Shown here: positions 1 through 12,451 of the stretch, piece after piece
Position numbering within the stretch: position 1 is the stretch's first letter
Layout of the letters: every line of letters begins with the position of its first letter
From: an uncultured Leptospiraceae bacterium
Lineage (GTDB): Bacteria; Spirochaetota; Leptospiria; Leptospirales; Leptonemataceae
DNA: 12,451 bases
Direction: 5' to 3'
Assembly: GCA_964530305.1 (NCBI GenBank)
Contig: CAZGYS010000114.1
Location: 598-13,048, forward strand
Translations under genes and position numbers: made by a program
The notes under the pieces: model-generated
Database searches by the model: none
Told to the model about the DNA's origin: nothing
Seen by the model: only the letters and a program-made list of their open reading frames with translations

Positions 1-2075
1 AACTCTCGTATTCTAGTAAATCTAAAATGACTACCACCTGGCGCGTCACCGGGACGGTGGTGGATCGGGGCGGACGCGTCGGCTCCTCCGTTAAGAAGTT
101 TCTTTCCACCAAGGAATTAACGGCGCGATTGGCCGTGCCCCGTTATTTGAACACGGGCTCCACCGGTCGCGCGTCGGGCATCGTGCGCAATCTTACGCGT
201 AAGCCCATGACCGTCATCGCGCAGTTCCGCGCCAGGGGCGGCCTCAAGCTGGGCAAGCCGGGCGATTCCACGTCCAGCTTCGCGCGCAGCCAGACCTTTC
301 GCGCTACCCTGCAACCCGGTCGTCGAGCCAGCTTCACCGTGAGCGTGTTTTCGCGTACGGAAAATCGCAACGCGAAGATTCAGTTCTTCGCGCGCACCAC
401 CGACGGCAAATACAAGGACAGCCTGGAGAAGAAACTCCCGGTCTATGAAACCGGCCTGACCCACACCCTGGCCTCCAACGACAGCCTGCTCCACGGCAAG
501 GGTCCGGGCGGCAGCAAGGTCATTCGCCTGGAAGGCGATGTACTGCGCCTCGGGAAAGACAAGATCAAGCCGGTGAAATACGAAGTCGTGGTCTACCCCA
601 ATCTCATGGGTTCGGTGCTGGGTTCGCTGGAATACCTGCTCGAGTATCCCCACGGTTGCGTGGAGCAAACCACCAGTCGCTTTTTGCCCAATATCGAAGT
701 GCTGCGCTTCTTGAAGGAGAACGGCATTCGCAATCGCCGTCTGGAAGGCAAGCTTCAGCAAAACATCCAGGGCGGCATTAATAATCTGCTTGAATTGCAA
801 AACCCGAAACGCGGCGGCTGGGGCTGGTGGCGAAGTCGCGGCGGTTACGCCGTGAATCACTGGATGACGGCCTATGCTCTCTATGGTCTCGTCACGGCCA
901 AGAACGCCGGGTTCGACGTGGACCAGGCCAAGCTCAAGAAGGGCCTGGATGCGCTGTATAAAATCATGTACGCGACGGGCGGGGATCGCACCAGCGAACT
1001 GGACGAGCGGGACTATCCCATCAAGGAAAGCTTCGTCGTCTTCGCCAACTATATCCTGACGTCCGCCGGCCGGGGAGAGCCCAGCATCACGGACGCCATC
1101 ACCGTTCTGCAACAGCGCTCGAATCTCGAAGCCCTGGGCTGGGCGGCGCGAGCGCTGGTGCTGGAAGGACGCTGGAAGGATCTGGCGGAACTCCGTAATG
1201 TTATCCTGCGCCAGGCCATTAACTTTCGCTTCCTGCAAGAAGACGTGAACGGCCCCAACACCAGCCAGACTTACTACACGGCCATCGCCCTGGGCGGCAT
1301 CTTCGCCGGTTCGCGCTGGTCAAAAGGCGATTCCATCGAGTTCATCAAGAGCCTGCTGGCCAATCGCTCGGCGGATGGTAAGTTCATTTCCACCCGGGAG
1401 ACGGCGGCGTCCATTCTGACCATGCTGAATTTCCTGCGGGCCAATAAGCAGTACATGCGGCCCAACATGAACGTCACCCTGAAGCTGCCGGACGGTAAGA
1501 CGCGCAAGATTACCATCAATCGCCGCAGCTCCGTATTCAAACCCACGGTGGTGCCCATCGCCCTGTCCGGTTTCGACCCTTCCAATCCGCGCGTGCGCGT
1601 TACCTGGAGCGGCACGGGCCTGGCGCAGGTTTATCTGCGCGCGAAGGTCTTCGAAAAGACGAAGGAATTCAAACCGCGCGACAACGGCATCAGCGTGGAG
1701 CGCAAGTACGTGCCCGAGGGCGCCGACCCCAATCGCGTTAAGTTTTCCGGCATCGTTTCCCAGGGAGACGCGCTGGACGTGATCATTCGCGTGAAGATCA
1801 ACTCGGGCGGCAACTACCTGGCGGTCACCGAATACATTCCGGCCGGCTTCCAACTGGTATCCAGTTTCGATTACTCGTCCGGTCGCACGAACGTTGTCGT
1901 GAAGAAGGACCGTATTCACTTCTACGTGGAGAACTACAGCGGCGTGGAGACGATTCGCTATCGCCTCCGGGCGGTGAACCCGGGTCACTACCTGGTGCAA
2001 CCGGCCAAGGCCGAACTCATGTATCGGGACACCATCAATGGTTCGTCTCGCGCCGAGGTCCTGAAAGTCAACTGA
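1..2075 (+). CDS. Alpha-2-macroglobulin (A2M) family protein, C-terminal portion. It covers a bait-like linker, an MG/CUB-like segment, the thioester domain and a receptor-binding-like C-terminus. The reading frame is open back to window position 3, so the 5' end is probably outside the window. The first in-window ATG is at 27.
   Basis: The translation contains LLEYPHGCVEQTTSRFLPNIEVLRFL. This closely matches the A2M thioester region consensus (P-x-GCGEQ-NM...PNIYVLDYL), and the GCVEQ thioester motif sits at nt 654-668. Downstream there is a Trp/Gly-rich alpha-toroid-like segment (GGWGWW...YALYGLVTA) and a C-terminal beta domain (YLAVTEYIPAGFQLV), as expected for TED plus the receptor-binding/MG8 domain. 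Only about 210 aa precede the thioester, whereas full A2Ms have over 1000 aa of MG domains there, so the protein is probably truncated by the window. The stop codon TGA (2073-2075) overlaps the next ATG. Confidence 0.8.
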   Translation, partial: LSYSSKSKMTTTWRVTGTVVDRGGRVGSSVKKFLSTKELTARLAVPRYLNTGSTGRASGIVRNLTRKPMTVIAQFRARGGLKLGKPGDSTSSFARSQTFRATLQPGRRASFTVSVFSRTENRNAKIQFFARTTDGKYKDSLEKKLPVYETGLTHTLASNDSLLHGKGPGGSKVIRLEGDVLRLGKDKIKPVKYEVVVYPNLMGSVLGSLEYLLEYPHGCVEQTTSRFLPNIEVLRFLKENGIRNRRLEGKLQQNIQGGINNLLELQNPKRGGWGWWRSRGGYAVNHWMTAYALYGLVTAKNAGFDVDQAKLKKGLDALYKIMYATGGDRTSELDERDYPIKESFVVFANYILTSAGRGEPSITDAITVLQQRSNLEALGWAARALVLEGRWKDLAELRNVILRQAINFRFLQEDVNGPNTSQTYYTAIALGGIFAGSRWSKGDSIEFIKSLLANRSADGKFISTRETAASILTMLNFLRANKQYMRPNMNVTLKLPDGKTRKITINRRSSVFKPTVVPIALSGFDPSNPRVRVTWSGTGLAQVYLRAKVFEKTKEFKPRDNGISVERKYVPEGADPNRVKFSGIVSQGDALDVIIRVKINSGGNYLAVTEYIPAGFQLVSSFDYSSGRTNVVVKKDRIHFYVENYSGVETIRYRLRAVNPGHYLVQPAKAELMYRDTINGSSRAEVLKVN
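654..668 (+). other. Thioester site motif GCVEQ of the A2M-family protein. The Cys and Gln would form the reactive beta-cysteinyl-gamma-glutamyl thioester.
   Basis: The codons ggt tgc gtg gag caa at 654-668, read in the ORF frame, give G-C-V-E-Q. The flanking residues match the conserved A2M/C3 thioester context. Confidence 0.7.
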
Positions 2076-2917
2076 TGAGCCGGCATCTCCAATACAGACG
2101 GGCACCCGGCGTCGATCGGTTCGCGGCCATGTGCGCTTGCGCGATTTTCGCGGCCGTACTGGCCGCTTCCTGCGCCACGTCGACCGCCGCCTCTTCGACG
2201 CCGAGCAGTGCTTCGAGCGCGCTGAAGGTCAAGACGTCCGCGCAACTCGTACGCGAAGACAGCCAGCGAGCGGCCGCGGGCAAGGTAATCGCCCGACACA
2301 AGCTGCTGATTACGGCTTATGAATTCGGCGTGACGCGCAACGTGGACGTGGCCGCGCAAAAGCTGAACTACTTTCTGCTGCCTCCCGGCGCGTCCTTTTC
2401 CCTGAACAAGCACCTGGGTAAGCGCACCCCGGACAAGGGTTATAAGAAAGCCCCGGTATATGCGGGCGCGGGGGCGCGTATCAAGGACTTCGGCGGCGGC
2501 CTGTGCATGGTCTCCTCGGTTCTATACAATATTTTTCTACGGGGCGGTCTGGAGATTCTGGAACGCCATCCCCATCGTAAGATTGTGAAATACGTTCCCG
2601 CGGGACTGGACTCGGCGGTGGACTGGGGCAGCAAGGACCTGCGCGTGCGCAACAACCAGCCCCATGCCCTGGTCATTCGCGTCTACCGCGAAGGCAAAAT
2701 CGTACATGGGGAACTCATGGGACCCGCGGGTCCCGCCCATGAAATCGAAATCAAACGCCATCTGTCCCGGGCCATCATTCCGGGCGTTTTGCAAAACGGC
2801 TTTCGCGTCCGAACCACGCGAACCTTCTTCGAACCCGGCGGGGAATTACTCCGAGAAGAAATTCTCTCGGAGGATACTTTCCTGCCCATCAACTACCAGG
2901 GAGCACCCGCTCAATGA
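2075..2917 (+). CDS. VanW-domain protein (VanW/YoaR-like, peptidoglycan-associated protein of unknown biochemical function). It has an N-terminal signal peptide and is possibly a lipoprotein.
   Basis: The 280-aa ORF carries the diagnostic VanW motif block KDFGGGLCMVSSVLYNIF...ERHPHRKIVKYVPAGLDSAVDWGSKDLRVRNNQPHALVI. The VanW consensus is GGGxCQVSTTLYNA...ERHNH...Y...G.DATV, so the match is close. The N-terminus has a basic n-region, a hydrophobic stretch (FAAMCACAIFAAVLAAS) and a Cys. The start overlaps the upstream stop (TGATG), and the stop overlaps the next start (ATGA), which indicates translational coupling. Confidence 0.8.
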   Translation: MSRHLQYRRAPGVDRFAAMCACAIFAAVLAASCATSTAASSTPSSASSALKVKTSAQLVREDSQRAAAGKVIARHKLLITAYEFGVTRNVDVAAQKLNYFLLPPGASFSLNKHLGKRTPDKGYKKAPVYAGAGARIKDFGGGLCMVSSVLYNIFLRGGLEILERHPHRKIVKYVPAGLDSAVDWGSKDLRVRNNQPHALVIRVYREGKIVHGELMGPAGPAHEIEIKRHLSRAIIPGVLQNGFRVRTTRTFFEPGGELLREEILSEDTFLPINYQGAPAQ

Positions 2918-3873
2918 AATCGCATCTTAAATTCACGGCACCGGCAACGGCCGCCCTGACCCTCGCGGCGGCGCTGACCCTGCTCGGGGGATTTTCGGAC
3001 GGACCCCGGGCCCAGGCTTCGTCGACGCGCTACGTTACGGCGAAGTACGGCCTGCGCATGAGGTCCAGGCCTTCCCTGCGTGGGAAACGCGTCGCCACCA
3101 TTCCCGCGAAGGCGCAAGTCTACCTGATAAGGGAGTACGGTCGCACGCAAGTCATGAGCGGAAAGCGCGGTCGCTGGTCCTACGTGCGCTGGAATAAGCG
3201 CGCGGGCTGGGTCTTCGGAGGCTTCTTGAGTCGCCTGCGCCCCGGCGCGAAGGCCGGCATGCCCCGCATCACGATTCTCTCCCCGGGCAGCGGCTGGACG
3301 GCTAAAAAGATCGTCGTAGTAAAAGGGATGATTGAAAGCTCGGAGCCCGTGCGCGAAGCGCGATTTACCCAGAACGGGATCTCGCGCAGCATTCCCGTGA
3401 ACTCGGGACGCTTCTCGCAAAAGATTGTCCTGGGCTCCGGCGCGAACTACATCAAGATCGAAGCCACGAACGCGGGCGGCACTTCGGCGGCGGCGCTGAA
3501 ACTGGTTACGAACAACAGCCCCATGGACATGAAGGTGGTGCTCTCGTGGGATACGAACAACACCGACGTGGATCTGTGGGTTACCGATCCCAACAATGAA
3601 AAGGTTTCCTACCGGAACAAGCGCTCGAAGATAGGCGGGCAACTGGACGTAGACATCACCTCGGGCTACGGCCCCGAGACCTTCACCCTGGCCCGCGCCC
3701 TCCCCGGCGAATACCTGGTTCAGGTTCAGTATTACGGCGGCGCGCGTCCTACGATGGCCCGCGTGCTGGTCGTGCTCTATGAAGGCACCCCGAAAGAAAA
3801 ACGCCTGACCTTTCCCGCGCTTCTGCATAAACGCGGCAGCGGCATCACCATCGGCCGCTTCAAGGTGGACTAA
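2914..3873 (+). CDS. Secreted protein with three parts: an N-terminal bacterial SH3-like (SH3b) domain, an Ig-like beta-sandwich and a C-terminal YfaP-like (DUF2135-like) domain.
   Basis: The signal peptide is MKSHLKFTAPATAALTLAAALTLLGG...AQA. The segment YVTAKYGLRMRSRPSLRGKRVATIPAKAQVYLIREYG...WSYVRWNKRAGWVFGGFL has the SH3b signature (Y-V-x-a-xxLNVRSGPS...G-x-V...WxxV...G-x-GWV). The C-terminal block VLSWDTNNTDVDLWVTDPNNEKVSYRN...GGQLDVDITSGYGPETFTLARALPGEYLVQVQYYGG resembles, from memory, the conserved core of the YfaP/DUF2135 domain that is linked to A2M loci. There is a GGGAG 14 nt upstream of the ATG, and the ATGA overlap with the VanW gene indicates coupling. Confidence 0.7.
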   Translation: MKSHLKFTAPATAALTLAAALTLLGGFSDGPRAQASSTRYVTAKYGLRMRSRPSLRGKRVATIPAKAQVYLIREYGRTQVMSGKRGRWSYVRWNKRAGWVFGGFLSRLRPGAKAGMPRITILSPGSGWTAKKIVVVKGMIESSEPVREARFTQNGISRSIPVNSGRFSQKIVLGSGANYIKIEATNAGGTSAAALKLVTNNSPMDMKVVLSWDTNNTDVDLWVTDPNNEKVSYRNKRSKIGGQLDVDITSGYGPETFTLARALPGEYLVQVQYYGGARPTMARVLVVLYEGTPKEKRLTFPALLHKRGSGITIGRFKVD

Positions 3874-3895
3874 TCAAAATTTCCGGACAATACAC

Positions 3896-4651
3896 ATGAA
3901 GAAAAACGGCAAAATACTCTCCCTCATTCTCGCGGCGGGCATGCTCGCGGTCGTCCCCTGGTCCGAAACCGAGGCCACCAGCTTGACGACGGTCATTCGT
4001 AAAGTTAAGCGCGGCGATCGCAATGCCCTGACCAGTATCAGCTCGCGCGATTTTACGCGCCTGCATAATTACCGCGGCAAGTACTACTATATACCGCGCT
4101 TCATCGGCAAGAAGGCCGTGCGGAGCCTGTTCGGATGCTTCCGAAATCCGGACCGCGAAGTGCGGCGACTGTGCGCGGACAATCTCTACCAGTTCAAACT
4201 CACCTACGTGCACAAGAAACTGATTTTGTATTATATGCAAAAGGAAACCCACAAGCCGACGCGACTGGCCCTCCAGGACCTCATGATTCGCATCGATGAG
4301 GAACGCTTCGCGGAAGCCCGGCGCCTGGGAGACCGGAACTTCCTCACCAAGATTGATTTCGACCACATCCAGCCTTTTACGGAAAAGGGTTACCCCTCCG
4401 GCGGAGCCTACACCGACCGGGACATTCGCTTTTTGCGGGGCGGCCTGGGTAATAAGGACTATCGCATGCGGGTTTACGTCATTCGGATGATGGGACGCGT
4501 GCGCGGCGCCGACGCCACGCTCCTGCGCGTGCTGGCCATCCGGAAGAAACGCGAGTCCAACACCTCGGTTCGGCGCGCCATCGACGAATCCATTCGCTGC
4601 ATTCGCTCGCCCCGGTCCTGCCCGGACCTCTACGGCCCCTCGGATCAATAA
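3896..4651 (+). CDS. Secreted hypothetical protein with HEAT/PBS-lyase-like alpha-helical repeats.
   Basis: The 251-aa ORF starts 23 nt after the previous stop, in the same orientation. Its signal peptide is MKKNGKILSLILAAGMLAVVPWSETEA. It has repeated D/N-x-x-VRR-x-(A/C)-x-x-(L/I) segments (DREVRRLCADNL, DYRMRVYVIRMMGRV, NTSVRRAIDESI) typical of HEAT-like repeats. There is no recognisable catalytic motif. Codon usage is consistent with the neighbouring genes. Confidence 0.55.
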   Translation: MKKNGKILSLILAAGMLAVVPWSETEATSLTTVIRKVKRGDRNALTSISSRDFTRLHNYRGKYYYIPRFIGKKAVRSLFGCFRNPDREVRRLCADNLYQFKLTYVHKKLILYYMQKETHKPTRLALQDLMIRIDEERFAEARRLGDRNFLTKIDFDHIQPFTEKGYPSGGAYTDRDIRFLRGGLGNKDYRMRVYVIRMMGRVRGADATLLRVLAIRKKRESNTSVRRAIDESIRCIRSPRSCPDLYGPSDQ

Positions 4652-4671
4652 TATTCGAACACTATATGGTT

Positions 4672-4704
4672 CGCCGTCGTCTAAATTTATAAATGCCGGC
4701 GGCG
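4672..4704 (+). terminator. Stem-loop 21 nt downstream of the HEAT-protein stop codon. The stem is GC-rich and 10 bp long (one mismatch, one G-U pair), and it encloses the AT palindrome ATTTATAAAT. It could be an operon-end terminator or a protein-binding site.
   Basis: CGCCGTCGTC (4672-4681) pairs with GCCGGCGGCG (4695-4704). The loop is TAAATTTATAAAT, which contains the perfect palindrome ATTTATAAAT. On the + strand it is followed by an A-rich rather than a U-rich tract, so intrinsic-terminator character is weak. Confidence 0.25.
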
Positions 4705-4774
4705 ATCCAAAAAGTACTTGTCTATCATCGTGCTTTCGACATCCTTCCAGCCGCGGGCATTGGGGGCACATTCC

Positions 4775-4794
4775 CGGAACGTTACAGCGTTCCG
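4775..4794 (+). promoter_or_regulatory. Perfect inverted repeat CGGAACG-N6-CGTTCCG in the long intergenic region. It is a candidate operator or protein-binding palindrome, or a small hairpin.
   Basis: CGGAACG (4775-4781), spacer TTACAG, then CGTTCCG (4788-4794). The arms are exact reverse complements. There is no downstream U-tract. Confidence 0.25.
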
Positions 4795-4929
4795 CCGCAT
4801 GCGTGCTCCCGAGTTTTCACGACATAAACCATTAAGCGGTGGCGGACGATTTTCGCATTGCGATTGATTCGTTCGTCGTAGCCGTGCATAGTTTACCCTC
4901 ACGAACCTTTATCGGTTCGCGCGGGGTTA

Positions 4930-4959
4930 GCGGCGTATTTCGCGTCGCATGGTTTTTTT
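4930..4959 (+). terminator. Weak candidate intrinsic terminator: a short GC hairpin followed by a T7 tract.
   Basis: GCGGCG (4930-4935) pairs with CGTCGC (4943-4948) using one G-U pair, around the loop TATTTCG. ATGG and then TTTTTTT (4953-4959) follow. The stem is short, and there is a 4-nt gap before the T-tract. Confidence 0.2.
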
Positions 4960-4979
4960 GAGACATAGTCCGCTTCAGG

Positions 4980-5007
4980 ACGTATTTAATATATACGAAA
5001 CGTATTC
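4980..5007 (+). promoter_or_regulatory. Direct repeat ACGTATT ... ACGTATT spaced 20 bp apart (two helical turns). The copies flank TAATATATACGAA. This is a candidate transcription-factor site or AT-rich promoter element.
   Basis: ACGTATT occurs at 4980-4986 and at 5000-5006. The intervening sequence is strongly AT-rich (TTAATATATACGA), and it lies about 110 nt upstream of the yqiJ-like start. Confidence 0.2.
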
Positions 5008-5050
5008 AGCGGCGCACGCAAGCGCGACGCTTCGCGTAAAACAAAACGCA

Positions 5051-5080
5051 TTACAACAGCCTGGCAAGAGAATATAGATA
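5051..5080 (+). promoter_or_regulatory. Candidate sigma70-type promoter for the yqiJ-like, flotillin and giant-ATPase operon.
   Basis: TTACAA (5051-5056) and TATAGA (5073-5078) are separated by a 16-nt spacer. The predicted transcription start is about 25-30 nt upstream of an AAGGGAG Shine-Dalgarno-like element (5091-5097), and the ATG is at 5113. These are sequence-only predictions. Confidence 0.3.
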
Positions 5081-5112
5081 GAGAGCATCAAAGGGAGTAC
5101 TGAAGAAAACAA

Positions 5113-5856
5113 ATGCCGCCCATCATAGCCGAATCCATCAAACTGGTTAACCTTCCTTATACCATCTTCCTGGGAGTCATCATCATCTTCTGGCTCACCG
5201 TCATGCTCGGCGCGCTGGACATGGAATCCCTGGACGTGGACGCGGATGTCGACGCCGATGTTGATCTCGACCTCGACGTGGATATGGACGTGGACGCAGA
5301 CTTCGATGCCGATATCGACGCGGACGTGGACGCCGACCTGGATACGGATCTGGATGCCGACGCCGGCATGGGCGGCGGCGCGCTGGGCAGTTTCTGGGCC
5401 GCCTTGAACCTGGGCGCCGTGCCCCTATCCGTCTGGCTTTCCATCTTCGGAATCCTGTGCTGGTTCCTGTCCGTCAGCGGCAACATCATCGTGGACGGCA
5501 CGGTCCTCAAGAGCATTCATAACTTCTTTCGCCTGGTGCTGGGCAGTCTGTTGATCATTCCCCTGGCCGCGTTCATTACGCGTTTCGCCGTAATACCCCT
5601 GCGCCCGGTGTTTCGCATTCCGGACCCCAAGGACAATAAGGACTACGTCCGGGACATCTGCAAGATTACGTCATCAAAAGTGACGCCGACCTTCGGCATG
5701 GCGGAAATTCCCACGGACGCATCGCCCCTGCTCGTCAATGTTCGCGCCCGCGAAGAAGAGGGTCTGACCAAGGGCGACAAGGCGATGATCCTGCGTTATC
5801 ATAAAGATAAAAATTATTACGATGTAACCCGCTTCGAACACGAGAGCCTGAACTAG
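5113..5856 (+). CDS. YqiJ/NfeD-like inner-membrane protein (flotillin-associated). It has three predicted transmembrane helices and a C-terminal OB-fold-like beta domain. A 44-residue alternating Asp-X tract sits between TM1 and TM2.
   Basis: The 247-aa ORF has hydrophobic helices at about aa 14-35, 92-120 and 138-162. The C-terminal soluble segment (TFGMAEIPTDASPLLVNVRAREEEGLTKGDKAMILRYHKDKNYYDV) resembles the NfeD/YqiJ C-terminal beta-barrel, including a TKGDK-hydrophobic motif that I recall from E. coli YqiJ. It lies immediately upstream of a flotillin gene, which is the canonical nfeD/yqiJ position. An AAGGGAG RBS-like element is present upstream. Confidence 0.75.
   Translation: MPPIIAESIKLVNLPYTIFLGVIIIFWLTVMLGALDMESLDVDADVDADVDLDLDVDMDVDADFDADIDADVDADLDTDLDADAGMGGGALGSFWAALNLGAVPLSVWLSIFGILCWFLSVSGNIIVDGTVLKSIHNFFRLVLGSLLIIPLAAFITRFAVIPLRPVFRIPDPKDNKDYVRDICKITSSKVTPTFGMAEIPTDASPLLVNVRAREEEGLTKGDKAMILRYHKDKNYYDVTRFEHESLN
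5233..5361 (+). repeat. In-frame imperfect hexanucleotide tandem repeat (GAY-NNN), about 22 units. It encodes the strictly alternating dipeptide tract DVDADVDADVDLDLDVDMDVDADFDADIDADVDADLDTDLDAD.
   Basis: Direct reading of 5233-5361 shows Asp codons (GAC/GAT) at every second codon. The intervening codons encode V/A/L/M/F/I/T. The period is 6 nt and the frame is never broken. Confidence 0.85.
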
Positions 5857-5868
5857 CGGGCTACCGCT

Positions 5869-5895
5869 TCGCGCGGACATCGCCGCACCGCGCGA
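5869..5895 (+). other. GC-rich intercistronic stem-loop between the yqiJ-like gene and the flotillin gene. The stem is 8 bp and the loop 11 nt. It could be a partial terminator, an attenuator or an mRNA-stability element.
   Basis: TCGCGCGG (5869-5876) pairs perfectly with CCGCGCGA (5888-5895). It sits 13 nt after the TAG stop at 5854-5856. It is followed by CCTCTTCATG and has no clean U-tract. The flotillin RBS AAGGAGA lies about 40 nt downstream. Confidence 0.3.
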
Positions 5896-5951
5896 CCTCT
5901 TCATGATTGAAGAGCACCTACTCGGCGAATTTACGAAGGAGAAATGAATAG

Positions 5952-8036
5952 ATGAAGGAAATACTGGATCTTTTAACCAGCGGATTGATTGGCCTGTCGG
6001 TACTGGTAATCTTTTTGCTGATTGGCATAGTCTTTTTGCTGACCCGCTTTCTGGCCAAGGTGGAGCCGGGCAAGGCATTGATCATCATCAGTCCTTTCAA
6101 GGGCATGAAGGTATCATTCACCGGCGCGCTGGTATTTCCTTTAATTCATAGAATGGAGATCATGGACATCTCCACCAAGATGATTACCGTGGAAAGGCGG
6201 GGCAAGGACGGCCTGATCTGCAAGGACAACATGCGGGCCGACATATCGGTGAACTTCTACCTGCGCGTAAATCCCACGCGGGAAGACGTCACCCAGGTCG
6301 GCCAGAGTATCGGTGTGGCGCGTGCCTCAACGCGGGAGACGCTGGACTCCCTCTTTCAAGCTAAATTCTCCGAAGCCCTCAAGACCGTGGGTAAACAGAT
6401 GGACTTCGAGGATCTGTTCATGGAGAGAACAAGTTTCAAGGAGCAAATCGTAGAGAGCATCGGAGATAACCTGAACGGCTACAGCCTGGAAGATACGGCC
6501 ATCGACTATCTGGAGCAAACGCCCCTCGAGGAACTGGATGAAAACAACATCATGGACGCGGAAGGTATTCGCAAGATTACCGAAATCACGCTGACCAAAA
6601 AGGAAGTCGTCGAGAAGCGCACCACGGAAACCCGCGAGCGCATCCTGGAGCTGGAAAAACAGCGCAAGGAAGCGGAAGCCAAGCAGAAAAGTGAAATCAT
6701 GATCATCGAAGCCAAGGAAGAGGCCGAAGCCAAACGCGTACAGGAAGAAGAACGCCTGAAGGCCGAATCCGCGCGCATTGCATCGGACGAAAGCATCTCC
6801 GTGGGCGAAGTCAACATGGCTCGTCAGATCGAAGTGGCGGAGAAAAACAAGGAACGGGAAGTCGCCGTGGAAACCGAGCGCGTTGAAAAAGACCGCGCCC
6901 TGGAAGCCACCGACCGCGAAAAGCTCGTGGCCCTGGCCACCATCGAGAAAGACCGCGTGGTGGAAGCCGAGCGCAAGAACATCGCCGATATCGTGCGTCA
7001 ACGCGTGGCCGTGGAAAGAACCGTGGCCGAAGAAGAAGAGACCACGAAGAATACCCGCGCCTTCGCCGGAGCCGACCGGGACAAGCGCGTGGCCATCACC
7101 CACGCCGAAAAGGAAGCCGAGGAAAAACTGGTACTTGAAATCAAGTCCGCCGAAGCACGCGAAAAAGCGGCCGCTCACTTGGCGCGGGAAAAAGAAATCA
7201 ACGCGGACGTGGAGTTCTCCACCGCTTCCAAGCACGCCGACGCCAAGAAGACCCTGGCCGAGGGTATCATCGCCGAGGAAAGCGCCGAGGGCCTGGCCAA
7301 AGTCAAGGTCAAGCAGGCCGACGCCGACGCCATCCGCCGCGTAGGCGAAGCCGAGGCCAAGGCCAAGGAATTCGACTACGAAGTGGAAGCCAAGGGCATC
7401 AAGGAGAAGGGCCTGGCGGAAGTAAACGTCCGCAACGCCAACGCGGAAGTCACCGAACGCATCGGCCAGGCGGAAGCCGAATCCAAGCGCTTCATGTACG
7501 ACGTGGAAGCTCAAGGCATCGAGAAAAAAGCGGAAGCCATGAAAAACTACGACGGCGTGGGCCGCGAACACGAGGAATACAAACTGCAACTGGCCCTGCG
7601 CGAAAAGCTGGAGCTGGAGCGCATCGGCGTGAACAAGGACATCGCCATTGCGCGGGCGGAAGTCCTGGGAACCGCGTTGGAGAACGCGAAGATCGACATC
7701 GTGGGCGGGGACGGACAGTTCTTCGACAAGATCGTCGGGGCCGTTTCCGACGGACGCTCCGCGTCGGCCTTCATGAAGAACAACGAGCCTTTGACCGAAG
7801 TCAAGGACGCCCTGCTGGCCTCCGGGGACGACAATTTGTTGAATCGCATCAAGACCCTGGCCGATCACACCGGCATCTCGGCGGAGAGCGTGAAGGATCT
7901 CACCATCGCCGCGGTGCTCACCAAAATGGCCGTGGCCACGGACGACGGTTGGGTCAAGGAACAAGTCAATTCCCTCTCCGCCATGGCGGACAAGGTCGGC
8001 CTGAGCGATATGAAGCTCGGAAAACTGATGGGTTGA
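5952..8036 (+). CDS. Flotillin-like SPFH/band-7 family protein (YqiK/FloT-like). It has an N-terminal membrane anchor, an SPFH domain and a long Glu/Ala/Lys-rich coiled-coil flotillin tail.
   Basis: The 694-aa ORF begins with a transmembrane helix (LIGLSVLVIFLLIGIVFLLTRFL). The SPFH core is PGKALIIISPFKGMKVSFTGALVFPLIHRMEIMDISTKMITVERRGKDGLICKDNMRADISVNFYLRVNPTREDVTQV. It is followed by about 450 aa of EAxxK/ExxER heptad-like repeats, which are typical of bacterial flotillins. A strong SD (AAGGAGA) lies 11 nt upstream of the ATG. The gene follows a yqiJ/nfeD-like gene, as in known flotillin operons. Confidence 0.9.
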   Translation: MKEILDLLTSGLIGLSVLVIFLLIGIVFLLTRFLAKVEPGKALIIISPFKGMKVSFTGALVFPLIHRMEIMDISTKMITVERRGKDGLICKDNMRADISVNFYLRVNPTREDVTQVGQSIGVARASTRETLDSLFQAKFSEALKTVGKQMDFEDLFMERTSFKEQIVESIGDNLNGYSLEDTAIDYLEQTPLEELDENNIMDAEGIRKITEITLTKKEVVEKRTTETRERILELEKQRKEAEAKQKSEIMIIEAKEEAEAKRVQEEERLKAESARIASDESISVGEVNMARQIEVAEKNKEREVAVETERVEKDRALEATDREKLVALATIEKDRVVEAERKNIADIVRQRVAVERTVAEEEETTKNTRAFAGADRDKRVAITHAEKEAEEKLVLEIKSAEAREKAAAHLAREKEINADVEFSTASKHADAKKTLAEGIIAEESAEGLAKVKVKQADADAIRRVGEAEAKAKEFDYEVEAKGIKEKGLAEVNVRNANAEVTERIGQAEAESKRFMYDVEAQGIEKKAEAMKNYDGVGREHEEYKLQLALREKLELERIGVNKDIAIARAEVLGTALENAKIDIVGGDGQFFDKIVGAVSDGRSASAFMKNNEPLTEVKDALLASGDDNLLNRIKTLADHTGISAESVKDLTIAAVLTKMAVATDDGWVKEQVNSLSAMADKVGLSDMKLGKLMG

Positions 8037-8037
8037 C

Positions 8038-11000
8038 ATGGCCGAGGAAACTTCCACGACAATCGCGGACGAAGAAGTCGGACCGGGCGAAAGCCCGGCC
8101 GGCGAAGGCTCCCAGGGCGGCGGCGCCCTTGAGGGTGGTTCCTATGAGATCATTCGCAATCGCCTTTCCAAAATAGGCGATGAACTCCTGGAGCGCATCA
8201 ACCAGCTCAACGGCCGACGCAAGGAAGTCTTCGGCGCGCTGGACAATCGCCTGGTGGGGCAGGAGCAGATCCTCACCGACACCAATTGCGTCCCCATCGA
8301 CATGAAGTCGCTGGGCGGCAATCGCTTGATTTTCGGTTATCGCGTCTATTTAGGTTTGAAGACGACGCCGAAGATCTCGGATGTCTTCAGCCTGTATGAA
8401 TTCAAGGACGATAAATTCGAACCGGCACCCGCGGATTTTCTGGAGACGCCGGCCTTCGTCCGCGATTTCAACGACCTCTTTAACTATTATAAGAACTCCC
8501 GGTTCGTAACCTTTCATAAGGACGAATCGCGCCTGCTGATGGTTTTCCAGGTGGGCAAGGAAAGCGAGGACATTCGTGCCTTCAAGTGGCTCCTGAACGG
8601 GGACAATACCCTGACCTACGTAAACAATCGCGCCGAGCGCGAATACGTTTACCCGCCCCAGCACGAATTCGAATGGAAGCGAGCCACGCGGGATCAACAG
8701 ATCTACGGCACGCACCCGCACATCTCCATCGAGGACAAGGTTTTCGTGGAGTGTACCGGCGGCGATTTAACCATCAAGGTCGAGAACAATACCGATTCCG
8801 GCGCCGGCATTTATCGCGAGGACGTGGAACACAAGGACCAGACGCTGGACGACGCGGAAGTTCACTACGCCGTTCTGGATCACGTGGTACTTTTGCGCAT
8901 CAAGCCCTTTCGCGAAAAGGACTACCGCTATATTATTTTTAATGAGAAGACCGAAAAGGCCGTGCGGGTGGACGACATCGAGCAGAGCGCCATTCGTCTG
9001 CCCGAGGACGACGGTCTGATCTTTCCCCGGGGTTACTATCTGGAGAGCGGCGAATATAAGCGCTTCGAGCTGGAGATTCCCTCCATGCAGTATCGCAAGC
9101 TCTTGCCCTCGTCAAACGGCGAAGACTTCCTGTACGTTTTCTTCAACGCCGACCTGGGCGAATACATTCTGCTGCAATACAATCTAATCGAAAAGAAAGT
9201 CGAAAACCCCATCTACTGCCACGGCTTCGCGCTCTACGAAGACGGCAAGATGATCTTCTTCAAGGGCGATGAGCAGGCCAAGAAGAATCACGGCATTCAA
9301 ATCTGGCAAACGCCCTTCGTCAGCGACAAGCACATGCAACTGGCCGTGAAGGACGATTCGGAACTGAATCGCATCGGTAACAAGGAGCTGGTGCGGGGCA
9401 TAGCGGATTTGCGTTCCGTGTTGAATCTGTTGCGCACGGAAAAAGTCTACCTGGGTCTTTATCATCAAATCGCCCGCAAGGTTACCAATACGCTGGACTT
9501 CCATCACTGGATGGGATCCGACCAGGTCTTTAATCCGAAGGAAGTCCTGCAACGCGCGGGCGAAACCGCCAAGGGCGCGCTGGAAGAGTACGAAAAAGTC
9601 GTGCAAATTCGCGCGAACACCGAGAACGCCGTGAAGGCCGCCTCGAGTCGCATGGAAAAACTGGAGCTGGAGCTGGGCGGCCGTCGCTTCGAACAGATCG
9701 AGCAGTACGTGGAAACCCTGGCGGATCTGCGCATGGAGCGCGGCAAGATCATTTCCCTGAAAGAATTGCGCTACGTCGACGCGAACAAGGTCGACGAGCT
9801 GGAAGCCATCGCCGTAAGGCTGCACGACGTGACCGCCCATGGGTGCGTGGAGTTTCTGTTAAAACCCGAGGCGCTCACGCCCTTCATGGACAAACTCAAG
9901 GACTACGAGGGGCAAATCACGGAGCTGGAGAAAGTGGCCCAGTTGCGCGAACTGGGTGAGAAAATCGCCCAGGTAAACGAGAGCGCCAACCTGCTGACCG
10001 AGATGGTCAACAACCTGGAGATCGACGACGCCACTCAGACCACGAACATCATCAACAACATCTCGAATGTTTATACGCGCATCAACCAGGTCAAGGCCGC
10101 GCACAAGAAACACACCCATTCCCTGCACGCCCAGGAGTCCAAGGAAGAGTTCGCCGCGCAGTTCAAGCTCATCAGCCAGACCGTGGCCACCTTCCTGGAT
10201 CAAGCCGATTCGCCCGAACGCTGCGAAGAGCTTCTGACGCGGGTTCTCGTTCAACTGGAGGAACTGGAAGCACGCTTCGCCGATTTCGACGAGTACATCG
10301 AGGAGCTTTCGCGCAAGCGCGAGGAGATCTACAGCGCCTTCAATTCGCGCAAGGTGCAACTGGAAGAAGGTCGCAACAAGCGCAGCGCCACGCTATGGAA
10401 ATCCGCGGAGCGCATCCTCAAGGGCGTATCCAATCGCATGTCCCAGTTGAAGGGCATCGACGAACTAAACGCCTACTTCGCGGGAGACGCCATGATCACC
10501 CGCGTGCGGGACATCGTTGAGAAACTGGCGGAGATGGGAGATCAGGTGAAGTCCGAGGACATCGCCGGTCGCCTCAAGAGCCTCAAACAAGAAGGCGCGC
10601 GTCAGTTAAAAGACAAGCTGGACCTCTTCGCCGACGGCGCGGACGTCATCAGTCTGGGTCGCCATAAGTTTCTGATCAATACCCAGTCCGCGGAACTGAC
10701 CACCGTCAATCGCGACGGAGAAATGTGCTTTCATTTAACGGGCACGGAATTCTTCGAACCCATTCAAGACGAAAGCTTCGAAGCCACCCGACCGTTCTGG
10801 GAACAGGAGCTGCCTTCGGAGACGTCGGAGATCTATCGCGCCGAATACCTGGCGTACAAGATTATCCGCTCCGTGCGTGAGGAAGGCACGCCCCTTTCGG
10901 AAAAGGAACTCCACGACATCACCCGGGACCTGGACCGCGAATTTCACAACGCCGAACCCAACGAACTCCAGGAAGCCCCGGACTTTCAGAAACTACTGGA

Positions 11001-12451
11001 AGCCGTACGATCCTTCATGGCCGGGCGCTATTCCGAGGGATATGAAAAAGGCGTGCACGATCTGGATTGCGCGCGCCTGCTGACGGCCCTCTACCCCGTG
11101 TACGCCCGCGCGGGCGCATTGCGATTCGCGCCGGATACGCGCGCTTATGGATATTTGTACTGGCGCCACGCGGAGCACACCGAGGCCAAGGAGTTGCTGG
11201 GTCGCAAGATTCGCTCCTATGGCCTTCTGGGCGAACTGACTCCCACGGCCAACGCTCATCCCGTTTACGTCGAGCAATTGAACGAGATGGTCGCCGCCTG
11301 GTTCGAGGACCAGGGCATTCCCGCGAAACCGGGGGCCCTGCGCCACACGGCGGACTACCTATTCGAGGAACTCAAGGCGGGCCGCGGCGACGCCATGGGC
11401 GGCGCGAAGGGCACCGGCCACATGTTTCCCATCAACGGGCAGGCCTATGATATCTACATGGCCTTTCGCGATTTTCTCAAGTCGAAGAAATCCATTCGCC
11501 GTTTCAATGAAGCCGTGAAGAGCATCGGTCCGGGAGCGGGAGGACGCCTGTCCATCATTCAGGACTGGGTGGGAGCTTTCGTGGATGCCCACGAGGAGAT
11601 GAATTCGGACTTCGTCCTGGAAACCTCCATGGCCGTGCTCGACGAAACGCTGGACGATAAACTGGACGGCGATCTGGATTCCGGACTCGTCGTGAAAATC
11701 GACACAACCTGCACGGCACGAGGCATGATGGGGCGTCACCCGCGCATCGAAGACGGCAACCTCAGCGTGGACGTGGCCGACTTCCTGATGCGACTCGACG
11801 AATTCGAGACCGAGAGCGTACCGCGCTACCGCGATTACACGCAACTCAAGCACGACCTTACCGAAAAACAAAAAGACGTCATGCGTCTGGACGAATTCAA
11901 GCCGCGCATCATGAGCGCCTTCGTGCGTAACAAACTCATCGATACGGCCTACCTGCCCCTCATCGGCGCGAACCTGGCCAAGCAGATGGGTTCCTACGGC
12001 GATCAAAAACGCACGGACCTCATGGGCCTGTTGATGCTGATTTCGCCGCCCGGTTACGGCAAGACGACCTTGATGGAGTACATCGCCAATCGCCTGGGGC
12101 TGATCTTCATGAAGATCAACGGTCCGGCTCTCGGCCACAATGTCGTGTCCCTGGATCCGCAGGAGGCGCCCAACGCCACCGCGCGCGAAGAGGTGAACAA
12201 ACTCAACCTGGCGCTGGAGATGGGCAACAACGTCATGATCTACCTGGACGACATCCAGCACACGCACCCGGAGTTTCTTCAAAAGTTTATTTACCTCTGT
12301 GACGCGCAGCGCAAGATCGAGGGTGTCTATCGCGGACGCACGCGAACCTACGACCTGCGGGGCAAGCGCGTCTCGGTGGTCATGGCCGGCAACCCGTATA
12401 CGGAAAGCGGCGAAAAGTTCCAGGTCCCCGATATGCTGGCCAACCGGGCCG
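8038..12451 (+). CDS. Giant multidomain protein, 3'-partial, with at least 1471 aa in the window. It has an N-terminal beta-rich region (about aa 1-480), a central coiled-coil region of about 370 aa, an alpha/beta middle region and a C-terminal AAA+ ATPase domain. Its architecture is reminiscent of the large proteins annotated as 'DNA repair ATPase' (DUF3686 plus AAA), but I have not verified this.
   Basis: ATG 8038 lies 1 nt after the flotillin TGA (8034-8036). Frame 1 has no stop from 8038 to the window end. I translated it myself. The ORF track omits it because it lacks an in-window stop. Every other + strand ORF listed in this span is in a different frame and is R/P-rich junk. The translation is protein-like throughout and begins MAEETSTTIADEEV...GGSYEIIRNRLSKIGDELLERINQL. 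It has heptad-rich segments (EKLELELGGRRFEQIEQYVETLADLRMERGK, VLVQLEELEARFADFDEYIEELSRKREEIYSAF). It ends with an AAA+ core: Walker A LISPPGYGKTTLMEY (nt 12043-12069 encode SPPGYGKTT), Walker B VMIYLDDIQH (YLDD at 12241-12252), sensor-1 VVMAGNPY (12376-12393), then PDMLANRA at the window edge. Confidence 0.8.
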   Translation, partial: MAEETSTTIADEEVGPGESPAGEGSQGGGALEGGSYEIIRNRLSKIGDELLERINQLNGRRKEVFGALDNRLVGQEQILTDTNCVPIDMKSLGGNRLIFGYRVYLGLKTTPKISDVFSLYEFKDDKFEPAPADFLETPAFVRDFNDLFNYYKNSRFVTFHKDESRLLMVFQVGKESEDIRAFKWLLNGDNTLTYVNNRAEREYVYPPQHEFEWKRATRDQQIYGTHPHISIEDKVFVECTGGDLTIKVENNTDSGAGIYREDVEHKDQTLDDAEVHYAVLDHVVLLRIKPFREKDYRYIIFNEKTEKAVRVDDIEQSAIRLPEDDGLIFPRGYYLESGEYKRFELEIPSMQYRKLLPSSNGEDFLYVFFNADLGEYILLQYNLIEKKVENPIYCHGFALYEDGKMIFFKGDEQAKKNHGIQIWQTPFVSDKHMQLAVKDDSELNRIGNKELVRGIADLRSVLNLLRTEKVYLGLYHQIARKVTNTLDFHHWMGSDQVFNPKEVLQRAGETAKGALEEYEKVVQIRANTENAVKAASSRMEKLELELGGRRFEQIEQYVETLADLRMERGKIISLKELRYVDANKVDELEAIAVRLHDVTAHGCVEFLLKPEALTPFMDKLKDYEGQITELEKVAQLRELGEKIAQVNESANLLTEMVNNLEIDDATQTTNIINNISNVYTRINQVKAAHKKHTHSLHAQESKEEFAAQFKLISQTVATFLDQADSPERCEELLTRVLVQLEELEARFADFDEYIEELSRKREEIYSAFNSRKVQLEEGRNKRSATLWKSAERILKGVSNRMSQLKGIDELNAYFAGDAMITRVRDIVEKLAEMGDQVKSEDIAGRLKSLKQEGARQLKDKLDLFADGADVISLGRHKFLINTQSAELTTVNRDGEMCFHLTGTEFFEPIQDESFEATRPFWEQELPSETSEIYRAEYLAYKIIRSVREEGTPLSEKELHDITRDLDREFHNAEPNELQEAPDFQKLLEAVRSFMAGRYSEGYEKGVHDLDCARLLTALYPVYARAGALRFAPDTRAYGYLYWRHAEHTEAKELLGRKIRSYGLLGELTPTANAHPVYVEQLNEMVAAWFEDQGIPAKPGALRHTADYLFEELKAGRGDAMGGAKGTGHMFPINGQAYDIYMAFRDFLKSKKSIRRFNEAVKSIGPGAGGRLSIIQDWVGAFVDAHEEMNSDFVLETSMAVLDETLDDKLDGDLDSGLVVKIDTTCTARGMMGRHPRIEDGNLSVDVADFLMRLDEFETESVPRYRDYTQLKHDLTEKQKDVMRLDEFKPRIMSAFVRNKLIDTAYLPLIGANLAKQMGSYGDQKRTDLMGLLMLISPPGYGKTTLMEYIANRLGLIFMKINGPALGHNVVSLDPQEAPNATAREEVNKLNLALEMGNNVMIYLDDIQHTHPEFLQKFIYLCDAQRKIEGVYRGRTRTYDLRGKRVSVVMAGNPYTESGEKFQVPDMLANRA
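11900..12451 (+). other. AAA+ ATPase domain (truncated by the window end) at the C-terminus of the giant ORF.
   Basis: The P-loop GYGKTT, a hydrophobic run followed by DD (Walker B), and an Asn-containing sensor-1 (AGN) appear in the canonical order and spacing (about 65 aa from Walker A to B, about 45 aa from B to sensor-1). The Walker A variant SPPGYGKT differs from the usual GPPGTGKT. Confidence 0.7.

Follow-up and report, generated by a model that had tools for sequence, protein, structure and literature searches.

The DNA analysed here (the window) is a stretch of 12,451 nucleotides (nt) from an uncultured Leptospiraceae bacterium, and at positions 3-4651 of its + strand it carries four consecutive, translationally coupled genes. 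These encode a bacterial alpha-2-macroglobulin (A2M), a VanW-family protein, a YfaP homologue with a probable SH3b region (open reading frame 3, ORF3) and a HEAT-like protein (ORF4), arranged as follows:

3..2075, + strand: C-terminal part of the A2M, recognised by Pfam and phmmer, its 5' end cut by the window edge
654..668, + strand: GCVEQ thioester motif (CxEQ), read from the translation
2075..2917, + strand: exported VanW-family protein made up of one domain, probably an L,D-transpeptidase (LDT), supported by PF04294, a hydrophobic N-terminus and the gene junction
2504..2611, + strand: candidate triad codons, Cys144 at 2504-2506, His167 at 2573-2575 and Asp179 at 2609-2611, placed by alignment
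2914..3873, + strand: exported SH3b plus YfaP/MagA/MagF-type protein (ORF3), supported by Pfam, BLASTP and hhalign
~3049-3231, 3253-3870 and 3697-3813, + strand: subregions of ORF3, respectively SH3b, YfaP-homologous body and DUF2135
3896..4651, + strand: exported HEAT-like alpha-solenoid protein of 251 amino acids (aa) (ORF4), supported by alignment, an AF2 model and a profile search

The A2M stop and the VanW start overlap as TGATG (2073-2077), and the VanW stop and the ORF3 start as ATGA (2914-2917). An earlier note on this DNA had described the four genes with these two overlaps, and the sequence bears it out on both points; the gap between ORF3 and ORF4, given there as 23 nt, measures 22 nt (3874-3895). 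The same note ascribed signal peptides to all four products. Hydrophobic N-terminal export segments are indeed present on VanW, ORF3 and ORF4, while the N-terminus of the A2M lies outside the window and its signal peptide is visible in orthologues only. No NCBIfam model reached its cut-off with the A2M, ORF3 or ORF4, and Rfam and tRNA scans of the window gave no match.

The A2M is represented by its C-terminal 690 aa, in a reading frame that is open at the window edge, and matches the Pfam families A2M, TED_complement (E=1e-13) and bMG10 (E=7e-15, residues 562-675); its closest solved relatives by phmmer are Escherichia coli YfhM/ECAM (4e-13) and the insect protein TEP1 (~1e-13). The thioester is retained, as proposed in the earlier note, with the CxEQ motif lying inside the TED domain, and HGC[VT]EQTT is present in every A2M of the orthologous modules. 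The window A2M is 45-58% identical to the A2Ms of 1474-1544 aa encoded at the related loci L001-L005. The bait region and the domains MG1-MG6 lie outside the window, which begins only about 600 bp from the edge of the 13,048-bp source contig; bMG3, MG2 and A2M_BRD are found in the orthologues of L001-L003.

The product of the second gene matches PF04294 with 133.9 bits (cut-off 27, E=3e-39), in agreement with its earlier assignment to VanW. When it is aligned with the enterococcal VanW-B (E. faecium) and with the Bacillus and Acetoanaerobium VanW proteins, all three taken from plasmid records, C144, H167 and D179 are invariant, and the Cys-His-Asp triad is kept in 93 of the 93 VanW domains collected, all A2M-linked ones included. 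VanW domains constitute a second family of peptidoglycan LDTs characterized by this triad (Bollinger et al., PNAS 2024, PMC11348318), in which the cysteine is needed for 3-3 cross-linking and which also display LD-carboxypeptidase activity; among the foreign VanW proteins assayed in Clostridioides difficile, three of seven were active and four were devoid of LDT activity (PMC11348318). A 2025 review repeats the LDT assignment and describes VanW as mostly restricted to Gram-positives (PMC12729407). The earlier statement that VanW is without an assigned biochemical activity is therefore outdated since 2024 (PMC11348318) and, since the family has been assigned LDT activity, the locus is to be read as "A2M plus an LDT", the window VanW being a putative L,D-transpeptidase with an intact triad. 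A sequence search for a solved VanW structure found none. The N-terminal region of the window VanW (2075-2170) contains a lipobox-like stretch, AAVLAASC (LAASC), and an alternative start at Met19, so that this protein may be a lipoprotein instead of a soluble one; the VanW orthologues have ordinary signal peptides without Cys.

ORF3 matches DUF2135/YfaP_C with 35.5 bits (cut-off 22), as the earlier assignment to a DUF2135/YfaP-like family required, and the beta-sandwich family Glucodextran_B with 27.2 bits (cut-off 27). The homology extends over the full length of E. coli YfaP, which is matched by residues 114-319 (BLASTP 1e-26, 32% identity over ~180 aligned residues; profile alignment by hhalign 99.6%, ~200 columns), and residues 116-319 are 59-67% identical across all orthologues. 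For the SH3b part of the earlier description, the L004 orthologue has a precomputed SH3_3 (PF08239) match; the window protein itself scores marginally, at 26.1 bits and below the cut-off of 27, and the domain is missing from the remaining orthologues. By these comparisons ORF3 is a true member of the YfaP class, extended at its N-terminus by a probable SH3b domain. YfaP/DUF2135 presumably corresponds to COG4676, which agrees with YfaP being annotated in E. coli as a DUF2135 protein. In Pseudomonas, the COG4676 proteins MagA and MagF bind the A2M MagD in a 1:1 ratio (PMC3735191, PMC5764988).

ORF4 matches no Pfam family at threshold, the best being HEAT_2 with 16.7 bits (cut-off 27.7). A profile search against 1.84 billion representatives recovered only 6-7 clusters at E<1e-15, and six weaker, multi-stretch remote matches that were scanned are all HEAT_2 repeat proteins. 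The AF2 model is an all-helical solenoid (pLDDT 81) whose best Foldseek matches in the PDB are weak ARM/HEAT folds (E of 0.08 or worse), and the orthologue alignment contains four invariant cysteines, C81, C93, C235 and C242. Judged from profile and predicted fold, the protein is probably HEAT-like, and its family is specific to this module.

Relatives of the module were collected by a word-indexed search of 5.8 billion proteins, which yielded only 8 homologues of the window VanW; their contigs were pooled with loci from a scan of GTDB species representatives and from a metagenome scan, and all loci were annotated with hidden Markov models built from the module proteins. A scan of genome contigs with the single VanW sequence found no relative, unlike an alignment-based scan, which did. 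The set includes 11 related loci (L001-L005, L009-L012, L089 and L090), from metagenome-assembled genomes (MAGs) labelled Leptospirales, Leptospiraceae or Spirochaetota. The order A2M-VanW-YfaP-HEAT-like is kept in all 11, with 36-67% identity to the window proteins, and a bifunctional class-A penicillin-binding protein (PBP; Transgly plus Transpeptidase, 646-695 aa) is the fifth gene in each of the nine loci that extend past gene 4, its start overlapping the stop of the HEAT-like gene in four (L001, L002, L003 and L005). In the five PBPs compared, the GT51 motifs EDxxFxxHxG and GGSTI[TS]QQ are present, as are SxxK and SxN in 5/5 and a C-terminal KSG in 4/5, the exception being L004. These PBPs score 144-203 bits against NCBIfam PBP_1c (TIGR02073), whose cut-off is 494, with similar scores for PBP_1a, and have only the Transgly and Transpeptidase domains in Pfam, with no BiPBP_C domain.

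On the other side of the operon, the A2M is preceded in 7/7 loci with upstream DNA by a gene whose AMMECR1-domain product begins with a signal or anchor sequence. Exported AMMECR1 also occurs in a lineage with an A2M::VanW fusion (see below) and in four further loci, either upstream of the A2M or between VanW and A2M; examples lie at L001:2669-3397, L002:4751-5470, L010:2672-3382, L107:4693-5586, L109:1386-2072 and L131:10438-11253. AMMECR1 proteins are normally cytoplasmic and of unknown function. The earlier note had reasoned that a PBP immediately upstream of the A2M would make the locus canonical: no PBP stands there in any relative, and the exported AMMECR1 occupies the position instead. 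The full operon in the relatives is thus exported AMMECR1-thioester A2M-VanW-YfaP homologue-HEAT-like-class-A PBP, and the interval 3-4651 of the window is the 3' two-thirds of this conserved periplasmic operon; an AMMECR1 gene probably lies just upstream of the window.

The window departs from its relatives after the fourth gene, where the HEAT-like gene is followed by a 461-bp non-coding spacer at the place of the class-A PBP and then by unrelated genes. No PBP is found in the 10.4 kb 3' of the A2M within the window, and a tblastn search with five orthologous PBPs found no remnant at E<0.1, chance matches alone being returned (E of 0.14 or worse). Five independent short contigs (1.2-2.8 kb) from other assemblies encode an identical HEAT-like protein and, 3' of it, the neighbour that it has in the window, and since the same junction recurs on all five, the absence of the PBP is not an assembly artefact. 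Among the module loci with DNA past gene 4, the window genome is the only one without a PBP at that position; in the light of this comparison, the PBP gene has either disappeared from its operon or been relocated. The earlier statement that the window is free of PBP1c is correct, but the PBP-free "novel partner set" derived from it is a peculiarity of the window genome, as 9/9 related loci that reach beyond gene 4 have the class-A PBP. In L004, the closest relative with context, the PBP (L004:6126-8307) is divided between two ORFs that overlap (6126-8090 and 7813-8307), the first without KSG. A frameshift or an error of assembly would explain this, as would ongoing decay of the gene; decay would be of interest, as the window genome has no PBP at that position. 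A 239-aa ankyrin-repeat protein (Ank_2, E=7e-38) is encoded after the PBP in L001 (14433-15152) and L002 (14360-15079), and is absent from the other relatives and from the window.

The association between A2M and VanW is not confined to this clade. The metagenome scan, seeded with VanW motifs of the A2M-linked clade, returned 80 loci, most of them 32-45% identical to the window VanW. A thioester A2M (CxEQ) adjoins VanW in the order A2M->VanW in L113, L139, L142 and L156, and with weaker support in L100, where the A2M is a 24-bit fragment only; in L109, L120, L125 and L131 the order is VanW-AMMECR1-A2M, again with a thioester A2M. In L107 (5582-10624) the two proteins are fused into a polypeptide of 1680 aa containing bMG3, MG2, bait region, A2M, TED and bMG10 followed by a C-terminal VanW (Pfam E=8e-50); its Cys-His-Asp triad is intact, its A2M part is of the thioester type and AMMECR1 is directly upstream. 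The same protein is found on the fusion contigs L105-L108 (99.9-100% identity) and an orthologue interrupted by ambiguous bases on L112 (82-83% identity), so that the fusion represents one lineage with two sequence variants. When the fusion C-terminus was searched against the 5.8-billion-protein set, VanW proteins of Bacillota dominated and no fusion was recovered. In a neighbour-joining tree, which is crude and in which many loci were too short to score, the A2M-linked VanWs split into four groups or more. On this evidence VanW is located beside a thioester A2M in three or more additional lineages; the flanks of these distant loci showed no class-A PBP. On the co-occurrence of VanW with bacterial A2Ms, which the earlier note had suggested surveying, this motif-seeded scan of VanW loci shows adjacency in several lineages together with a fusion, and in the searched literature no paper pairs A2M with VanW or A2M with AMMECR1.

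Bacterial A2Ms have been sorted into two locus types, and the functions of their partners, PBP1c included, are largely conjecture. In type I loci a PBP1c adjoins the A2M; here the class-A PBP of the relatives is located four genes downstream and is not of PBP1c type (144-203 bits vs 494, no BiPBP_C). In type II loci the A2M is without thioester, which is present here; the YfaP/MagA/MagF-class (DUF2135, COG4676) partner of this type is present as well. YfaQ/MagB (DUF2300), YfaT/MagC (DUF1175) and YfaA/MagE (DUF2138) did not appear in Pfam scans of the window proteins, their domains are absent from the precomputed Pfam annotation of the module loci, and a custom DUF1175 model found nothing in the window or in the module loci. 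The earlier claim of a non-canonical operon is upheld by the failure to fit either locus definition and by the order conserved in the 11 relatives. On gene content, the locus is in neither canonical type as defined and would work like an enlarged type I system.

The earlier note had also seen here a mixture of type I and type II partners. A thioester A2M accompanied by a true YfaP and a VanW is non-canonical, but the mixture is not unique: a scan with the YfaP homologue added ~30 species representatives that have one or two YfaP-type genes immediately next to a thioester A2M. Among them are Leptospira haakeii and L. sarikeiensis, further Leptospirales and Spirochaetota, and members of the Planctomycetota and Myxococcales. 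In the Leptospira-type order, DUF1175 (YfaT/MagC-like, NlpC/P60-related) is followed by the A2M, by one or two YfaP genes and by a transpeptidase-only PBP; in the searched literature this sister operon has no description. The L. haakeii locus L020 (4377-14216) comprises DUF1175, a thioester A2M, two YfaP genes, a 364-aa transpeptidase-only PBP and a 599-aa protein without Pfam match, and similar sister operons are present in L017, L021, L022, L025-L029, L031-L033 and L038.

Downstream of the operon, the window contains the spacer and an unrelated three-gene cluster:

4652..5112, no strand: non-coding, AT-richer 461-bp spacer with a terminator-like hairpin at 4930-4948 followed by a T-run
5113-12451, + strand: unrelated three-gene cluster, made up of the three genes below
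+ strand: membrane protein of 247 aa containing an extended acidic D-x repeat at ~5221-5361 (DVDADVDADVDLDLD...)
+ strand: flotillin-like Band_7/SPFH protein of 694 aa whose E/K/A-rich coiled coil is very long
8038 to past the window end, + strand: DUF3686 + DUF7902 + AAA ATPase of at least 1471 aa

The E/K/A-rich coiled coil of the flotillin-like gene accounts for the strong AT skew at 6500-8000. The minus-strand ORFs at 9184-9840, 9859-10359, 10993-11346 and 11359-12282 were rejected as antisense shadows of the + strand DUF3686/AAA gene. A possible second VanW at 11844-11497 on the minus strand, a weak tblastn match of the L002 VanW (E=0.014), was likewise discarded: it is antisense to the well-supported + strand DUF3686 gene (E=1e-177), and the minus-strand ORF has no Pfam match.

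The activities of the proteins, the complex that they would form and the physiological role of the module are proposed here from sequence alone. The reading favoured, with moderate confidence, is that of a periplasmic kit for envelope breaches, in which a protease trap is combined with peptidoglycan repair through 3-3 cross-linking. The A2M would trap proteases that enter the periplasm after a breach of the outer membrane, by cleavage of the bait and subsequent attack of the thioester; the YfaP homologue would bind the A2M as an accessory subunit, like MagA/MagF on MagD, and the Cys-rich, presumably disulfide-bonded HEAT-like protein is probably an A2M accessory subunit too, while the SH3b region on the YfaP homologue (window genome and L004) is a likely peptidoglycan-binding handle. 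The VanW LDT would make 3-3 cross-links, reinforcing or patching the sacculus at the same site, and in the relatives it would work beside the glycosyltransferase/D,D-transpeptidase of the class-A PBP. A2M and PBP1c have been proposed as a defence/repair pair (PMC5764988), and in E. coli PBP1b, LdtD and PBP6a constitute a repair set under outer-membrane stress (PMC7554673); the module would then amount to the canonical pair of A2M and peptidoglycan synthase with an LDT and type-II-style subunits added to it.

Several observations weigh against a trap-and-repair kit. The four foreign VanW proteins that had no LDT activity in C. difficile (PMC11348318) caution against transferring the activity, and the window genome has no PBP at the conserved position, so that this protein is not essential in cis. 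LDTs depend on tetrapeptide donors, and the operon has no evident gene for a D,D-carboxypeptidase; the conserved exported AMMECR1 has no role in the model. The seeding of the metagenome scan with A2M-linked VanW motifs biases linkage frequencies upward. In addition, fusion of VanW to the A2M C-terminus exceeds the needs of a general repair enzyme and would suit one that has the A2M itself as its substrate or working partner. This last point leads to the main rival, rather doubtful at present, in which VanW would be a protein-to-peptidoglycan ligase passing a thio-acyl tetrapeptide-stem intermediate to an amine on the A2M or a partner, so that the trap and the caught protease become covalently tethered to the sacculus, as YkuD-type LDTs attach Lpp, OutB and outer-membrane proteins. 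Such a ligase would account for the fusion and for the tight linkage in several lineages and gene orders, as well as for the retention of VanW, and not of the PBP, in the window genome; the anchoring of proteins to peptidoglycan is a known activity of LDT families (PMC12729407; LdtA-C in PMC7554673; see also PMC12274547). Against it, protein attachment has been shown for no VanW-family enzyme, and a conserved C-terminal Lys/Arg is found neither on the A2M (...NVE/KVN) nor on the YfaP homologue (...KVD/TVE) or the HEAT-like protein, although acceptors may be internal or N-terminal.

A housekeeping role in the envelope of spirochaete-like diderms, for example in peptidoglycan remodelling or in the control of endogenous periplasmic proteases, is quite unlikely. 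Here the A2M would regulate a self protease and VanW would be an LD-carboxypeptidase or exchange enzyme, the former activity being one that VanW enzymes do show (PMC11348318); the occurrence of the module mainly in free-living/environmental MAGs of Leptospirales/Spirochaetota, not in host-associated pathogens, agrees with such a role, and the conserved exported AMMECR1 hints at chemistry outside the defence model. The intact thioester and the bait-region domain of the orthologues are, however, hallmarks of broad protease trapping, and no protease gene is conserved in the neighbourhood. Very improbable is a canonical type I A2M-PBP operon in which VanW, the YfaP homologue and the HEAT-like protein are unrelated passengers, even though the relatives carry a class-A PBP in the same operon and PBP_1c is the best or second-best NCBIfam model for it. 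The three genes keep the same order in 11/11 loci with overlapping stop/start codons and 36-67% identity, VanW is linked to thioester A2Ms without a PBP nearby in other lineages and in one case is fused, YfaP-class proteins bind A2Ms directly, and the PBPs fall far below the PBP_1c cut-off and are devoid of BiPBP_C; the strict conservation of gene order and the existence of VanW-A2M linkage without PBP leave passengers poorly supported.

A broader proposal, at present an unlikely one, would place AMMECR1-thioester A2M-VanW at the centre of a third, so far undescribed bacterial A2M class: beyond repairing the wall, VanW would couple the macroglobulin, or the trap once loaded with a protease, to peptidoglycan stem peptides, immobilising invading proteases on the sacculus, and the exported AMMECR1 would add another periplasmic activity. 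If true, it would provide the first protein-anchoring VanW, the first physiological context of VanW in diderms and the first extracytoplasmic role of AMMECR1.

What is new here is the repeated pairing of A2M with VanW, up to their fusion, along with a HEAT-like protein specific to the module and an exported AMMECR1 as neighbour. A division into two types does not cover all loci, thioester A2Ms accompanied by YfaP-type genes being common in Spirochaetota, Planctomycetota and Myxococcota. In every variant seen the trap is paired with a peptidoglycan enzyme, which may be a PBP (class-A or transpeptidase-only), an NlpC/P60-like protein or a VanW-type LDT, and this strengthens the idea of a trap plus wall repair. 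For VanW LDTs, regarded as mostly Gram-positive, the recurrent partnership with A2M in diderm-type contexts suggests a testable physiological role, and a signal-peptide-bearing AMMECR1 as a consistent neighbour gives a starting point for work on a domain without assigned function. The whole represents a solid comparative-genomics lead for the A2M and LDT fields, resting on metagenomic sequences and on a biased sampling of VanW loci.

Compared with type I systems (E. coli YfhM/ECAM-PbpC; Salmonella Sa-A2M), the module shares CxEQ, TED, bMG10 and periplasmic export, and also a bifunctional class-A PBP in the operon (here in the relatives only) and the trap-plus-repair logic. It differs in the VanW, YfaP-homologue and HEAT-like genes between A2M and PBP, in the exported AMMECR1 upstream (in the relatives), in the divergence of the PBP and, in the window, in the absence of a PBP after the HEAT-like gene. 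With type II systems (P. aeruginosa magABCDEF; E. coli yfaP-yfaQ-yfaS-yfaT-yfaA) it has in common a true YfaP/MagA/MagF-class protein; in contrast to them, it keeps the thioester, has no YfaQ/YfaT/YfaA homologues and bears a probable SH3b addition on the YfaP homologue.

The window VanW resembles the VanW LDTs Ldt4/Ldt5 of C. difficile and VanW-B of the vanB clusters in PF04294, in the Cys-His-Asp triad and in export, whereas it is found in a diderm (Spirochaetota-like) context, as a single domain without PG_binding_4 or G5, and its gene is inside an A2M operon. In the E. coli PBP1b-LdtD-PBP6a set, a class-A PBP glycosyltransferase and an LDT likewise serve to patch peptidoglycan upon outer-membrane failure, but the LDT is of YkuD type, the genes are dispersed and co-regulated, and no A2M is involved. 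The Leptospira-type operon is without VanW, HEAT-like protein and AMMECR1, and has DUF1175 upstream and a monofunctional transpeptidase downstream; within the same phylum, both share a thioester A2M, one or more YfaP-type partners and a peptidoglycan enzyme.

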